This document shows positions 29,559 to 61,317 of a stretch of DNA of 64,000 nucleotides, piece after piece. Under the pieces are notes generated by a model. It was not told the origin of the DNA, did no database searches, and saw only the letters and a program-made list of their open reading frames with translations. The position numbers and the translations under genes are program-made. Within the stretch, counting starts at the first letter, position 1. The number at the start of each line of letters is the position of its first letter. The DNA comes from Desulfobacterales bacterium (GTDB taxonomy: Bacteria > Desulfobacterota > Desulfobacteria > Desulfobacterales > SG8-13), in contig DAXETY010000042.1 in NCBI GenBank assembly GCA_051155755.1, forward strand, positions 20,367 through 84,366, written 5' to 3'.

Positions 29559-29638
29559 GCTGTCCTCCGTGAAATCGTTTGAGTCGCTTCGATCACGATG
29601 ATCGGAGCCGTGCGATCTTCGGGCGATATCCCTGGATT

Positions 29639-29685
29639 CGAAACTCGAAACTCGAAACTCGATACCGCTCCAGTTTCCAGTTCCC
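29639..29685. repeat. Heptamer repeat block: 3 x CGAAACT followed 9 nt later by 2 inverted copies (CAGTTTC, CAGTTCC)
   Basis: Read directly: CGAAACTCGAAACTCGAAACTCGAtaccgctcCAGTTTCCAGTTCCC, in the aprA-qmoA spacer about 80 nt upstream of the qmoA ATG. Confidence 0.7.
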
Positions 29686-29746
29686 AATTCCGAAGCATAC
29701 AGACATCGCCCAAAGAATTCGCCGAAAAAATCAGAGCCTGTTTACG

Positions 29747-29784
29747 AAAAACCTCCAGGTGCCAAAAGACACCTGGAGGCTTTT
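29747..29784 (-). terminator. Intrinsic terminator/attenuator hairpin after aprA
   Basis: The minus strand reads CCTCCAGGTG-tcttttgg-CACCTGGAGG followed by TTTTT, 37 nt after the aprA stop and before qmoA. Confidence 0.75.
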
Positions 29785-29815
29785 ATGCTGCAGTTACATC
29801 ACAGGGGTCTCCCGA

Positions 29816-32806: not shown

Positions 32807-33559
32807 ATGTTTTCTGACAAGGCTAATTTTCAGATGGAAAATCGATTCGACCCCATCGCGGACAACGAAATATTCGTGTTCGACTGCCACCCGCAGGTGA
32901 CCTGCTTCAACGCCTGCTGCCGGGATTTGAACCAATTTCTCACCCCTTATGACATTTTGCGACTCAAGCAGCACCTGGGCCTTTCTTCCGGGTCATTTTT
33001 AGAAACATACGCCACCGAACACGTGGGTCCGCAAACCGGCCTGCCGGTGGTCACCCTTCGCTGCCAGGCGCCGGGGGCGCGATGCCCGTTTGTCAGCCCC
33101 GGGGGGTGTCAAGTGTATCCGGCGCGTCCGACATCCTGCCGGCTCTACCCCCTGGCCCGCGCCATCGCGCGGAACCCGGTCAGCCACCGCACCGAGGAAC
33201 ACTTCGCCCTGATCCGCGAATCGCACTGTCAGGGGTTTTGCTCCGGTACCGCCCGCAGTCCCCGCCAATGGATGAAATCCCAGCAACTTGAAACTTACAC
33301 CGAATTGAACGATCTTTTCCTGGAGCTCATCGGACTCAAAAACCGCATGCCCGCAGGTCCCCTGCCGCTGCGGGATCAGCACCTTTTCCGAACGGCTCTG
33401 TACGATCTGGACCGCTTCCGGCTTCAGATCAAAAAATCCGCCATCGCCGATGACTACGGGCTTTCGGCCGAGGCGGTGCAAGCACTGCAAACGGACGAAG
33501 AGGCGCTGTTGCGCTTTGCCCACCGATTCGTGAAACGGGAGGTGTTCGGAAAAAATTAG
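32807..33559 (+). CDS. YkgJ/UPF0153-family cysteine-cluster protein (paralog 1)
   Basis: FDCHPQVTCFNACCRDLNQFLTPYDILRLK plus CPFVSPGGCQVYPARPTSCRLYP matches the CxxCxxCC ... CPF...C..Y..RP..C pattern of the family. 250 aa with an extended C-terminal region. Confidence 0.7.
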   Translation: MFSDKANFQMENRFDPIADNEIFVFDCHPQVTCFNACCRDLNQFLTPYDILRLKQHLGLSSGSFLETYATEHVGPQTGLPVVTLRCQAPGARCPFVSPGGCQVYPARPTSCRLYPLARAIARNPVSHRTEEHFALIRESHCQGFCSGTARSPRQWMKSQQLETYTELNDLFLELIGLKNRMPAGPLPLRDQHLFRTALYDLDRFRLQIKKSAIADDYGLSAEAVQALQTDEEALLRFAHRFVKREVFGKN

Positions 33560-33606
33560 TTCAATTGGTTCAATTGGTTCGATCGGTTCGATCGGGTTGC
33601 GGGTTG
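33557..33606 (+). repeat. 9-bp-periodic tandem array (ATTGGTTY family), locus A
   Basis: TAGTTCAAT TGGTTCAAT TGGTTCGAT CGGTTCGAT CGGGTTGCGGGTTG. It starts at the stop codon of the YkgJ paralog 1 gene. Confidence 0.8.
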
Positions 33607-47955: not shown

Positions 47956-50661
47956 ATGGCCAAAATCAGAGTTTATGAACTTGCCAGAGATCTGAATATG
48001 ACCAACAAGACGCTTATGGACAAAATGAAAGACATGGACATCAGCGTCAAAAGTCATATGAGCTCCCTGGAAGAGGAGGAGGTGGACCTGGTGAAGTCCA
48101 ATCTGTTCGGGAAAAAGGCCGAAACCGTCGTGGAAACACGCATCCGCCCGACAGTGATTCGAAGACGGCGCAAGGCCGTCCCGGTCACGCCGGAGGAGGC
48201 CGCCGAGGCCGAGACGGAAACGGCAGCGCCCGAAGAAGCCCCCCTCGAAGAATCACCGGGAGTCGAAGTCGTCCCTGAAGAAACCCCCGAGGAAACCACC
48301 GAAGAAGAGACCTTGCCGGCCGAGACTGCAGAAGCCGAAGGGGCCGAGCCCGCCGAATCCGAAATACCGGAATCCGAGACGGTTGAAGTGCCGGAATCGC
48401 AGGCGGAAACCACCCCCGTGGAAACCCCGAAAGAACCGCCGCCGCCCCCGGCGGAGACGACCGAGCCGGAGGAGACCGCCGAGGTGGAAACCAAACCGCA
48501 AGTCGTGGAGAAAAAGCCGCCCAAGAAAGTCAAAAAGCCGGACGGGTCCGCTAAAATCATTCAGCTCCCGACAGCTCCCAGAGAAGCCCCGGAAGAAAAA
48601 CCGGCGCCAAAGAAAAAACTGAGCAAGGACCGTGCCCGGATCGTCAAACCGGCGACCCCATCCAAGCCTCTGCCGCCCGAGGAAGAAATCGCCCAGGAGG
48701 CCCGCAAGAAAAAGCGCAAGAAACTGCAGGCCGAAGAAGGCGATGCCGACCGGAAATTTTTTAAAAAACGCATCTCTTTCCGCCGCAAGGAAGTGGTCGA
48801 AGGCGAAGACCTCTATGAGGGCCGCGGCCGACGACGCAAGGGCAAAAAAGGCATCAAGGCCAAGGCCGCCACACCGGCGCAAAAAACCACCATAACGACG
48901 GCCAAACAGATCAAGCGACGCATTAAGGTCGATGAAACCATCATGCTGTCGGAACTGGCCAAGCGAATGGGAATCAAGGCCAATGAAATGATCAAAAAGC
49001 TCATGGCGCTGGGCGTGATGGCCACGGTCAACCAGACCATCGACTTCGATACGGCCGTGCTGGTGGCTTCGGAGTTCGGCTACGAAGTCGAGCGCGCCTC
49101 CTTTGAAGAACAAGCCCTGCTCAACGTTCAGGAAGATGAACCCGGGCAATTGGCCGAACGGCCACCGGTGGTCACCATCATGGGACATGTGGATCACGGG
49201 AAAACCTCCCTTCTGGATGTCATTCGCAAGACCCACATCACCGACACCGAGGCCGGAGGCATTACCCAGCACATCGGCGCCTACAGCGTCAAACTCGATC
49301 GCGGTCAAATCGCGTTTATCGACACGCCGGGCCATGAGGCCTTTACCGCGATGCGGGCCCGGGGAGCGCAGGTCACAGATATCGTCATACTGGTGGTAGC
49401 AGCCGACGACGGGGCAATGCCGCAAACCATCGAGGCCATCAACCACGCCAAGGCCGCCAAAGTGCCGATCATCGTGGCTGTCAATAAAATCGACAAAGCC
49501 AATGCCGATGTCGACCGGGTTTACCGGGAACTTTCCGAGCAGGGCCTGACTCCCGAAGCCTGGGGTGGGGACACAATCTTCGTGAAGGTTTCGGCCAAAC
49601 AGAACACCGGGATCGAGGAACTGCTGGAAATGATTCTGCTCCAGGCCGAAGTCCTCGAACTGAAAGCCAATGCAAATAAACGCGCCTGGGGACATGTGGT
49701 CGAATCCAAAATTGACCCGGGCCGCGGTCCGGTGGCCACGGTACTGGTCCAGGAAGGTACGCTCAAAACCGGAGAACCCGTCGTTTGCGGGGTTCATTAC
49801 GGCAAGGTGCGCGCCATGCTCAACGACCGGGGCCAGCAGGTGGACACCGCCGGGCCTTCGATTCCGGTGGAAGTGATCGGACTTTCCGGGGTTCCGATGG
49901 CCGGCGACGAACTCATCGCCCTGGAGGACGAGAAAAACGCCAAGCAAATCAGCGAACACCGGATTCAAAAACAGCGCTCCATGGAGTTGGCCAAGACCAG
50001 CCGTCTGAGCCTGGACAAACTCTACGAGCAAATGCAGGAAGGCGAGGTCAAGGATCTGAACCTGGTTCTAAAAGCCGATGTGCACGGCTCCATCGAGGCG
50101 CTGGCCGATTCTCTGACCAAGCTGTCCAACGAAGAGGTCAAGATTCACGTCGTCCATTCGGCCACGGGCACGATCACCGAATCGGATGTATCCCTGGCTG
50201 CCGTATCCAACGCGATCATCATCGGATTCAATGTGCGTCCCACCAGCAAAGTGCAGGCGCTGGCCAACGAGGAAAGCGTCGATGTGCGCTATTACAACGT
50301 CATTTACGAAGTCATCAAGGACGTCAAGGATGCCATCGCCGGCATGATGTCCTCTACTTTCGAGGAGCGCACCCTGGGGCGCGCGGAAGTCCGGGAGGTG
50401 TTCCAGGTGCCCAAGATCGGGGCCGTGGCCGGCTGCTATGTGACCGAGGGTAAGATCGAGCGGAACCGCCGCGTGCGGGTGCTGCGCGACGGCGTGGTGC
50501 AATACGAGGGCAAAGTGGGCTCCCTGCGCCGCTTCAAGGAAGACGTGAAAGAAGTTGCCAGTGGCTACGAATGCGGCGTGGGCGTGGAGAACTTCAACGA
50601 CATCAAAGTCGGCGACGTACTCGAGTGCTACTATTTGGAAGAGATTCGACCGGAATTGTAA
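47956..50661 (+). CDS. infB: Translation initiation factor IF-2
   Basis: 901 aa with a low-complexity E/P/K-rich N-terminal region, a GTPase core ([29 protein letters not shown]) and C-terminal domains. Confidence 0.95.
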
Positions 50662-50668
50662 CAAATAC

Positions 50669-50712
50669 AATTGGATTGGTTCGATTGGTTCCTTTGGTCG
50701 AAAATGGAACCC
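50669..50712 (+). repeat. 9-bp-periodic tandem array (ATTGGTTY family), locus B
   Basis: AATTGGATTGGTTCGATTGGTTCCTTTGGTCGAAAATGGAACC, beginning 8 nt after the infB stop. Confidence 0.8.
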
Positions 50713-50814
50713 AGCGTTTAGCGACCTGCAGCGCCTTCTATGCGTCCTTGGGTTTTATTCTTTGTGCAGGCAATGAATTTACATGCAGCGAACGGACGTA
50801 TCGCAACGTTTTTT

Positions 50815-50854
50815 GAACCAATCAAACCAATAAAACCAATTGAAACAATCAAAC
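50815..50854 (-). repeat. 9-bp-periodic tandem array (ATTGGTTY family), locus C, inverted relative to locus B
   Basis: GAACCAATC AAACCAATA AAACCAATT GAAACAATC AAAC. It is complementary to locus B (for example GGTTCGATTGGTTC pairs with GAACCAATCAAACC at 13 of 14 positions). Confidence 0.8.
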
Positions 50855-50863
50855 TGAATATCT

Positions 50864-51151
50864 ATGGTCGTCGGTATCGGCATCGTCGTATTCCGGCTGC
50901 ACGACTGCCGCTCTTTGAAAAGCAAGCGCAAAGTCGTAAAGTCGATCATTCAGCAGGTCCGCAATCGGTTCAACGCATCGGTGGCCGAAGTGGGCGCCAA
51001 TGATGTCCACCAGCGGGCCGAAATCGGATTTGCCCTGGCGGGAAACGACCGCAAGGTGCTCAATGCCAAAATCGATAAAATCTTCAACATGATCGACGAT
51101 CTGGGCCTGGCGGAAATCGTCGATTCAGAGATGGAGATTATCAGTTTATGA
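50864..51151 (+). CDS. DUF503 family protein (YlxP-like)
   Basis: 95 aa. MVVGIGIVVFRLHDCRSLKSKRKVVKSII...FNASVAEVG...HQRAEIGFA is the DUF503 pattern. It occupies the conserved infB-rbfA position. Confidence 0.75.
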   Translation: MVVGIGIVVFRLHDCRSLKSKRKVVKSIIQQVRNRFNASVAEVGANDVHQRAEIGFALAGNDRKVLNAKIDKIFNMIDDLGLAEIVDSEMEIISL

Positions 51152-51501
51152 GATCGTATTCGCGCGCCGAACGGGTGGCCGGACTGATTCAGCAGACATT
51201 GTCTGAAATCCTGAACCGCAACGTCAAAGATCCCCGTCTGGCATTTACCACCATTACGCATGTCAAGGTGACCCGCGATCTTCGAATTGCGCGGGTGTAC
51301 TTTTCGACCGCCGGGGGTGAAGAAGCAAAAGTCCAGGCGGCGCTGCAGGGATTTCGCAGTGCCTCCGGATTTGTCAAAGGAGCGCTGGCAAAACGATTGG
51401 AACTGCGCTACATGCCGGAGCTGGAATTTTTTTATGATGAATCCTTCGATTACGGCTCACGAATCGACCAGCTGTTAAAATCCATACGTTCGAGCACATG
51501 A
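51148..51501 (+). CDS. rbfA: Ribosome-binding factor A
   Basis: RAERVAGLIQQTLSEIL...KDPRL...ITHVKVTRDLRIARVYFS. 117 aa. Confidence 0.9.
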   Translation: MRSYSRAERVAGLIQQTLSEILNRNVKDPRLAFTTITHVKVTRDLRIARVYFSTAGGEEAKVQAALQGFRSASGFVKGALAKRLELRYMPELEFFYDESFDYGSRIDQLLKSIRSST

Positions 51502-60434: not shown

Positions 60435-60474
60435 GAACCAATGGAACCAATCAGACCAATCAAACCAATGAAAC
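60435..60474 (-). repeat. 9-bp-periodic tandem array (ATTGGTTY family), locus D
   Basis: The plus strand reads GAACCAATG GAACCAATC AGACCAATC AAACCAATG AAAC. On the minus-strand transcript this is ATTGGTTY repeats starting 10 nt after the stop of the ATP-grasp-like gene. Confidence 0.8.
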
Positions 60475-60483
60475 TTGATTTGT

Positions 60484-61317
60484 TTATTTCAGTCCGTGGC
60501 TGCGCAGCCACGCCCGAATCTCTTCCAGCAGCACATCGTAATAGGCCTCCGATCCGCCCAGACCGCGGCGGCCGAAATACCAGTTGATCTCCAGAAACAG
60601 CGGCTTTTTGCCGCCTTCTTCGAAAAGCAGATCGAAGCCGGCCAGATCGATCCCGGTGCGACGGCAAAAGCGATCCACCGCTGCGGCACCGGCCTGTTGC
60701 AAATCGCGATCGCTGGCGCAGTCGATCCAGGCCCCCCGGGAAACCGCGCTGTGAAAGGCGCCGACATCGCTGCCCACCCGCCAGTAGGTGTAACGACGAC
60801 GGCCGATCACCGCCACGCGCAGGGACCGATGCCCGCAGGCGACCCATCGTTGCAGCAGGAAGCCTTTCTGATCGGCACGTTCCAAATCGGCGGTCCGCTG
60901 CAACATTGCATCGAGAGCCGCGCGGGTTTCCAGGCGAAATACCGTGTCGCCTTCCCCGCCCCAGTCGAACTTGAATACCAGCGGAAATTCGAAATCCAGT
61001 GCCGGTGATCGGCCAAGCCGATGCCGGTGATAGTCCCGCAAATCCGAAAACAGCCGACTGGTCGGATGCGGGATGCCGGTTTCCCGAAAGAGCCGAATCT
61101 GTCCGGTTTTGCCCGGATATAGAAACCGCATCCTGTAATTCGGAAACACCCTGGGGCAGTGGCGGTGTGCCATCCAATACAGATCGGCGCGGCAGCCCTG
61201 CGGCAGAATCACCGCATCGGCTGCCTGGATCGCGGACCGTTCATGCGGACCGGGGGTGCGTCCGGCGCAATTGATATCGCAGTCGCCTTCAAACAGCGGA
61301 TGAAAAGATACAATCAT
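60484..61317 (-). CDS. ATP-grasp-like protein (RimK/glutathione-synthetase-like fold, tentative)
   Basis: About 277 aa from the ATG at 61317. FPLVFKFDWGGEGDTVF...GFLLQRWV...LRVAVIG...IDLAGFDLLFEE...PLFLEINW resembles ATP-grasp nucleotide-binding and C-terminal E-x-N motifs. Confidence 0.55.
   Translation of the reverse strand: MIVSFHPLFEGDCDINCAGRTPGPHERSAIQAADAVILPQGCRADLYWMAHRHCPRVFPNYRMRFLYPGKTGQIRLFRETGIPHPTSRLFSDLRDYHRHRLGRSPALDFEFPLVFKFDWGGEGDTVFRLETRAALDAMLQRTADLERADQKGFLLQRWVACGHRSLRVAVIGRRRYTYWRVGSDVGAFHSAVSRGAWIDCASDRDLQQAGAAAVDRFCRRTGIDLAGFDLLFEEGGKKPLFLEINWYFGRRGLGGSEAYYDVLLEEIRAWLRSHGLK

Follow-up and report, generated by a model that had tools for sequence, protein, structure and literature searches.

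Inverted 9-nt repeat arms between infB and a DUF503 gene in a Desulfobacterales genome: probably an ORF-less IVS-type cassette from a dispersed repeat family

Between infB and the DUF503 gene of a Desulfobacterales bacterium, two arrays of a 9-nt unit face each other in inverted orientation around a core of 102 nt, and the question raised by this locus is whether such an element serves the operon in which it lies or is a repeat that has colonised one of its spacers. The window analysed here is a stretch of 64,000 nucleotides (C42:20367-84366) taken from an assembly of 4.29 Mb in 169 contigs, with 58% GC and a completeness of 85%, in which genes were called by our own crude codon-usage caller (3504 genes, 85% coding). 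The parts of the locus, and two further copies of the array in the window, are as follows.

47956..50661, plus strand: infB (IF-2), the upstream gene, with its TAA stop at 50659-50661 (Pfam IF-2, GTP_EFTU, IF2_N; ORF list)
50670..50712, plus strand: 5' arm (sequence; pattern match 50675-50690; pairs with the 3' arm)
50713..50814, no strand: 102-nt core (blastn against the genome, IVP HMM, Rfam, consensus scan)
50815..50850, minus strand: 3' arm, four units that read ATTGGTTYN on the minus strand (sequence; pattern matches; census array C42:71182-71215)
50864..51151, plus strand: DUF503 gene (Pfam DUF503)
51148-51501, after DUF503: rbfA (Pfam RBFA)
33557..33606, plus strand: second copy in the window (sequence; pattern matches)
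60435..60474, minus strand: third copy in the window, four units (sequence, ORFs)

The sequence of both arms and of their neighbours agreed with the initial annotation of this DNA, and the identities that it had given to IF-2, DUF503 and RbfA were confirmed by Pfam; rbfA is followed by a DHH gene and then by truB (Pfam DHH, TruB_N). The 5' arm starts after a gap of 8 nt (CAAATACA) behind the infB TAA and comprises, in order, ATTGG, the clean units ATTGGTTCG and ATTGGTTCC, then the degenerate units TTTGGTCGA and AAATGGAAC. On the plus strand, the 3' arm reads GAACCAATC AAACCAATA AAACCAATT GAAACAATC and ends 13 nt ahead of the DUF503 ATG (50864). This second array had been placed at 50815-50854, with a correct start and an end that must be moved, as the four 9-nt units stop at 50850. 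The site is an mRNA spacer and not helix 25 or 45 of the 23S rRNA; no 23S rRNA is assembled in this genome.

A CRISPR was rightly dismissed from the outset, the 9-nt units being directly adjacent, whereas CRISPR repeats measure 21-48 nt and are separated by unique spacers. The same is true of a terminator, as no intrinsic terminator-like site, that is a GC-rich hairpin followed by a T-run, was found in 50400-51100 by consensus scan, and such a scan also gave no convincing promoter in the spacer. Neither the spacer nor a composite copy of the array had a match in Rfam. As for the 102-nt core, no second copy was found in the genome by blastn, and no PF05635 remnant was detected in it when the IVP HMM was run against six-frame intergenic DNA.

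The two arms can pair with each other. The 13 pairs out of 14 positions initially counted between them are correct, and the arm duplex comprises 23 bp, interrupted, at -28.7 kcal/mol versus -12.0 +/- 2.9 for shuffled arms (ViennaRNA). When the whole region of 216 nt was folded, the minimum-energy structure closed on the arms, with an energy that only modestly beats that of shuffled sequences (z = -1.9). The linkers of facing arms are complementary at 0.53 of positions versus a null of 0.585, hence not beyond chance, so that the stems consist of 7-bp helices with 2x2 loops between them. In the nusA-infB-DUF503-rbfA transcript, the arms would be expected to pair into a 23-bp stem made of helices of 7-9 bp with small interruptions. 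By analogy with the IVSs of 23S rRNA, RNase III, for which the genome has a gene, would act on this stem, and its putative cut would detach infB from the genes that follow; 2x2 loops every 7 bp may hinder the enzyme. Other fates of the transcript may be considered, as the AU-rich arm presumably offers candidate RNase E sites, and the C-rich strand, which we take to be a candidate Rho loading site, may be avoided for that reason. The hairpin, moreover, cannot be the whole story, since 57 of the 81 arrays counted genome-wide (see below) lack an inverted partner at a distance of up to 250 bp.

The arrays at 33557 and 60435 were likewise confirmed, and each reads in sense behind a stop codon, as had been described. 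The former begins immediately after a TAG stop with four ATTGGTT-type units and runs into GCGGGTT heptamers (module d, see below), while the latter, in sense on the minus strand, lies about 10 nt past the stop of a RimK-like ATP-grasp gene (60484-61317, minus strand; Pfam RimK). Over the window, ATTGGTTNNATTGGTT with at most one mismatch gave 10 matches versus 0.02 expected by chance. Extended to the genome, with at least three ATTGGTTYN units and one mismatch permitted, the census yielded 81 arrays (73 by exact TTGG/CCAA spacing), of which 76 are intergenic, though intergenic DNA makes up 15% of the genome; this rules out a coding origin, in agreement with the first reading. Many arrays are found at contig ends, as expected of a repeat that breaks assemblies. 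One five-unit AACCAAT array (C44:59404-59492) overlaps the longest uvrC ORF, in which it would be translated as KPIEPIQPIQPIEPI, and the true start of uvrC is probably downstream of the array. Arrays of the ATTGGTT kind can therefore mislead start-codon calls, as in uvrC, as well as break assemblies.

Placement and orientation obeyed a rule. Read as ATTGGTT, 19 arrays have their 5' end no more than 20 nt from a gene boundary, and no array has its 3' end so close; of these 19 heads, 15 follow a same-strand stop and 4 precede the start of an opposite-strand gene. In co-directional spacers, sense arrays only were present in 17 regions, antisense arrays only in 12 and an A...a pair in 6; in spacers of any type across the genome, A...a pairs occur and a...A pairs were not found. 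The census that had been proposed for this repeat was thus carried out and revealed a dispersed, non-random and polar family, with random orientation or placement not seen. The proposal that the array reads ATTGGTTY in the sense of the transcript, on the other hand, does not survive at the genome scale. The boundary and pair counts point to a geometric rule instead: the head of the array lies at a gene boundary, past a stop or ahead of a start, and points inward, irrespective of transcript sense. Where arrays bracket genes, these are housekeeping ones (uvrB, uvrC, lexA, an acyl-CoA synthetase), with no transposases among them.

The 9-nt unit itself is unevenly constrained. Conservation was measured in units located between two perfect anchors (N = 105), which avoids detection bias: positions 1-6 of the core are conserved at 97% or more and position 7 at 91%, while the linker varies freely (position 8: T 50%, C 41%; position 9: G 46%, A 26%, C 25%). 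Neighbouring linkers are alike in 28 of 151 cases versus 24.5 expected, which is chance level, and the arrays are therefore not fresh slippage products. Chance and simple slippage were accordingly discarded on the basis of the 10 matches against 0.02 and of this likeness of linkers, as was independent slippage. The number of units per array was 3 in 16 arrays, 4 in 29, 5 in 32, 6 in 2 and 8 in 2, so that 77 of the 81 arrays hold 3-5 units. Core conservation was equal in solo and in paired arrays.

The ATTGGTT arrays belong to a larger mosaic, an aspect which had escaped the initial annotation, as had the use of the 9-mers as inverted arms of PF05635 cassettes (see below). Tandem Repeats Finder revealed several abundant families in the genome, namely AACCAATNN, AACGGAC, AGCTATG, AACCCGC, AAACGGCG and AAAGCTC. 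Read in the orientation of ATTGGTT, the modules follow a fixed order: A (ATTGGTTYN), E (GGCGAAAC-type), A, d (GCGGGTT), B (ACGGACA), the motif TTTAGGCATTT, f (GAGCTTT) and C (GCTATGAG). The composites often span a whole spacer, from the stop codon to about 12 nt ahead of the next ATG, with 70-93% identity between copies across 100-355 bp. The ATTGGTT arrays occur solo, as hairpins or stacked with other arm-type modules, and the infB-DUF503 copy is a minimal version of the mosaic, composed of two A arms and a unique core. Within the window, the aprA-qmoA spacer contains an inverted block of GAAACT heptamers (29559-29815), the subject of a separate initial annotation, which may be another arm-type module of a similar kind.

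The comparison of orthologous spacers that had been suggested was also made. Arrays of ATTGGTT were absent from the orthologous infB-DUF503 spacer in all 19 relatives of the same family, these being related genomes and not independent samples; these spacers measure 17-228 nt and cannot be aligned to the present one. The element is therefore lineage-specific at this site and, in all likelihood, no dedicated operon regulator. Other inserts were encountered at this site. One relative (L025, G015) has an unrelated insert of about 160 nt with inverted ends GGGCTCGC...GCGAGCCC, and another (G003) has GCGAAGCG-type repeats. It seems that, from one lineage to the next, the infB-DUF503 spacer takes up small elements of different kinds. 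The genomes of genus g3, with 70-81% identity, are too divergent for insertion borders to be defined by comparing filled and empty sites.

Outside this spacer, the motif is patchily spread. Matches to a three-unit pattern numbered 132 in this genome, 90 in one of another family of the same order (G035), and 13, 6, 2 and 1 in four others, with none in the remaining 35 of the 41 genomes compared. A GTDB-wide exact scan returned, among the matches listed, many Desulfobacterales, Desulfosarcina and Ca. Desulfatibia, together with Lewinella/Saprospiraceae, other Bacteroidota and Cloacimonadota. Many Desulfobacterales loci contain simple hairpins, with 3-5 units, a loop of 9-32 nt and 3-5 inverted units. 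At the loci of Lewinella/Saprospiraceae, Bacteroidota and Cloacimonadota, (ATTGGTTCG)n or (ATTGGTTGA)n starts directly past stop codons, and the non-coding arrays there have their 5' end after a stop in 22 cases versus 7 for the 3' end, again among the matches listed; the remaining matches listed are coding repeats. The pattern was also matched by several kb of (GTTGTAYTG)n-type 9-mers with an internal inversion in L081 and L141 (Stappiaceae MAG). G005 also contains a repeat of about 140 bp (L006/L029 and about 20 other places), whose copies, about 20 in number and 76-94% identical, have no relation to the ATTGGTT arrays. No relevant paper on ATTGGTT arrays was found in the literature searched.

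A link with PF05635 genes (23S-rRNA-IVS protein, Avd-like; IVP) is seen in relatives. In G010 (L160), a PF05635 gene (E = 2.3e-31) lies between four ATTGGTT units and an inverted AACCAAT arm, and in G035 (L169), at a non-orthologous site, another lies between about 20 and about 10 ATTGGTT/AACCAAT units. Both have ATTGGTTNN arms, and their IVPs, which share 64.8% identity, form a sister pair (support 100/99). The nearest IVP pairs have a common arm unit, against a median identity of 27.6%, so that arms track IVP clades. Of the 22 PF05635 genes inspected in G005, G010, G035 and Desulfosarcina alkanivorans PL12, most are flanked by inverted arms of tandem repeats, each with a unit of its own; strain PL12 carries ATTGGTT arrays and a total of 12 PF05635 genes. 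Exact inverted k-mer arms flank 35 of 54 full-length PF05635 genes in 13 genomes from at least four phyla (Desulfobacterota, Bacteroidota, Cloacimonadota and Cyanobacteria, with one unplaced genome, G050). The G-rich arm lies 5' of the PF05635 ORF in 26 cases versus 1. In the cyanobacterial copies, the arms are STRR-type heptamer arrays: the PF05635 genes of the heterocyst-forming Anabaena minutissima FACHB-250 and Calothrix sp. CCY 0018 (L220-L228) are flanked by inverted arrays, among them GTTAGTT/AACTAAT and AATTCGC/GCGAATT. One truncated cyanobacterial copy sits after (GGGGACT)n, which we take to be a complement rotation of the classical STRR1 unit. Cyanobacterial STRRs may be the arms of PF05635 cassettes.

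In the present genome, two PF05635 genes were found, each in a cassette which spans from the upstream stop to the next start and whose arms are mosaic modules (E and d). The first (C93:37450-38300) is preceded by about 25 GGCGAAAC-type units, beginning at the stop codon of the upstream gene, and followed by a short inverted TTCGCCG arm, so that the arms are very unequal in length. The second (C42:7500-8350, about 12 kb upstream of the window start) has GCGGGTT heptamers upstream and 13 AACCCGY heptamers downstream, the latter abutting the mutL start codon. This mutL-upstream cassette is common to G010, and a closely related GCGGGTT-armed cassette follows the same upstream gene in G005, on which account it looks old and vertically kept. 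A PF05635 gene with ATTGGTT arms was not found in this 85%-complete assembly, and no tandem-repeat-armed PF05635 cassette between protein genes was found in the literature searched. Two reverse transcriptase ORFs were noted, at C136:20015-21353 and on the minus strand of C169 at about 118-1602 (RVT_1 match 457-1125). A DGR-type link was nevertheless rejected, as these are the only RT genes, their C-terminal motifs are group II intron maturase-like by eye and neither is near an IVP gene or an array.

Four observations, namely a dispersed family, its polar placement at gene boundaries, a 7-nt core that hardly varies and the association of 9-mer arms with PF05635 in relatives, lead us to regard the infB-DUF503 element as probably an ORF-less IVS-type cassette, selfish or near-neutral, and a lineage-specific colonist of the spacer. 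Its anatomy, with inverted tandem-repeat arms from stop to start and gaps of 8 and 13 nt, is indeed that of the PF05635 cassettes. The reading draws on the fact that ATTGGTT arms bracket PF05635 genes in relatives, while mosaic modules bracket two such genes here. The plan of the family would be two inverted short-tandem-repeat arms around an interior, occupied by a PF05635 gene in full copies and by a unique sequence of 102 nt here; an intergenic repeat of this kind would have colonised the spacer in this lineage, with about 80 sister arrays elsewhere in the genome. The element is probably incidental to the infB-rbfA operon. Against the cassette reading stand the core, which holds no PF05635 remnant, the lack of an ATTGGTT-armed IVP gene in this genome, the predominance of solo arrays, the interrupted stems and the modest z of -1.9 for the whole region. 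For the arrays, the analysis revealed neither an empty site nor a target duplication nor a mobilising enzyme.

Three other explanations were weighed against this one. The arrays could act as a multivalent platform, each 7-nt core (ATTGGTT/AACCAAT) being bound by one subunit or domain of a protein, so that binding and not the hairpin would be under selection; although rather unlikely in our estimation, this explanation is compatible with the cassette reading. Two candidate binders may be envisaged, the Avd-like pentamer of the PF05635 family and a protein with a cold-shock domain, ATTGG being the core of the Y-box to which cold-shock domains bind. The pattern of constraint within the unit speaks for such a platform, with a core held at 97% or more over six positions and at 91% over the seventh, free positions 8 and 9, neighbouring linkers at chance likeness, paired-arm linkers that are not complementary, equal upkeep of the core in solo and paired arrays and few arrays above five units. 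The arm unit, moreover, co-varies with the IVP clade, and both S23p and Avd form homopentamers in which each subunit is a four-helix bundle (PMC4990558, PMC10053308). However, simple common descent would also make arm and ORF co-vary, the assembly lacks an ATTGGTT-armed IVP gene, and five is no general limit, given arrays of 6-20 units in G035 and Lewinella. Six modules in one genome would, in addition, need several binders, whereas two IVP genes are present.

A classical MITE appears improbable; it would have arisen by deletion from a DNA transposon, have 9-bp transposase sites reiterated in its terminal inverted repeats and be moved in trans by a transposase. The arrays are indeed inverted, terminal, dispersed, intergenic and patchy among relatives (6 of 41 genomes), and in Ca. 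Desulfatibia and other MAGs (L099, L112, L113, L125, L142; G041-G043) an ATTGGTT...AACCAAT palindrome travels within a MITE of about 215 bp whose terminal inverted repeats are distinct from it. The ends of that element, TTCAGCCACNAAGRCACNAAG, are two direct repeats of 8-9 nt, copies are about 95% identical in different flanks, the terminal-repeat motif occurs 88-101 times per genome, and one subfamily has the palindrome at its centre; its presence in different flanks indicates that the module travels. By contrast, the core of the infB-DUF503 element is unique in its genome, which argues against a classical MITE. Flanking direct repeats were not seen at 15 hairpins, examined with no empty site for comparison, the array-bracketed genes are housekeeping genes and not transposases, and most arrays are one-ended or are followed by the next module in place of the partner arm. 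The three Y1_Tnp (PF01797) genes are on contigs C146, C65 and C167, where no array is listed, and a link to RAYT was likewise rejected. The first reading had proposed a long interrupted stem or a MITE-like element with ends made of 9-mers, and as roles a miniature mobile repeat, a processing element or a binding platform; the census supports a dispersed, polar repeat family, and the unique core speaks against a MITE proper. As to an RNA structure dedicated to cis-regulation in the nusA-infB-rbfA operon, such as one that tunes rbfA versus infB through processing or stability, the location inside a conserved operon and the arms that can close a stem speak for it, and the counterpart operon of E. 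coli has processing sites. This explanation is nevertheless close to refuted and hardly credible any longer, since arrays occur at more than 50 unrelated loci, Rfam gave no match and the 19 same-family spacers, which cannot be aligned, never contain them.

A broader proposal, which we put forward as speculative and on balance doubtful, is that these arrays, the cyanobacterial STRRs and the IVSs of 23S rRNA form one unrecognised class of cassettes. A pentameric Avd-like PF05635 protein would recognise its own arms, one 7-nt core per subunit, and drive or guard insertion between a stop and the next start, ORF-less hairpins and solo arms being non-autonomous derivatives. IVSs and STRRs have both been on record since about 1990 and, to our knowledge, no origin or function has been accepted for either. 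The same tandem-repeat arms are now seen with and without a PF05635 gene, which bears on the puzzle of both. Strict polarity at gene boundaries, a constrained 7-nt core and a drifting linker turn what could pass for a "junk repeat" into a testable object. They also raise the questions of RNase III cutting in mRNA, of an Avd-like pentamer on its own arms and of placement between stop and start.

Compared with known systems, the infB-DUF503 element resembles REP/BIME sequences (REPIN-RAYT, enterobacteria) as multi-copy, non-coding, extragenic modular mosaics, often located after a stop in operons and capable of hairpin formation in mRNA. REP sequences are, however, single imperfect palindromes tied to RAYT (Y1), whereas tandem 7-9-mers are found here, with PF05635 as the associated gene. 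With MITEs such as the TTCAGCCACNAAGRCACNAAG-ended element of about 215 bp, it has in common a small size, the absence of an ORF, inverted ends, many copies and a location between genes, but no shared core, target duplication or cognate transposase was seen for it, and many sister arrays are solo. STRR sequences of cyanobacteria were reportedly described by Mazel and colleagues in 1990. They are alike in their short tandem units within intergenic and intra-operon spacers, in the hairpins formed by facing inverted arrays and in having no known function, and in Anabaena and Calothrix heptamer arrays bracket PF05635 genes. STRR hairpins inside operons, for example hupS-hupL, were described and left unexplained (PMC2670836). 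They differ by being heptamers of heterocyst-forming cyanobacteria, while the present unit is a nonamer (7-nt core and 2-nt linker) of other sequence in Desulfobacterales. Finally, the IVSs of 23S rRNA (Coxiella burnetii, Leptospira; S23p/PF05635 ORF) likewise have stem-forming terminal inverted repeats with short tandem repeats and a PF05635 interior in full copies, and both kinds of element are regarded as selfish. In Coxiella, the selfish IVS measures 428 nt and contains an S23p ORF; its terminal inverted repeats form a stem of 28 bp that RNase III cuts, and GACAGAT tandem heptamers in its 5' arm differ in number between strains (PMC4990558). PF05635 is similar to Avd, a pentamer that serves diversity-generating retroelements as an accessory protein (PMC10053308). 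The infB-DUF503 element differs from the rRNA cases, in which RNase III cutting was seen, by its location in an mRNA spacer, its 9-nt unit and its ORF-less interior.
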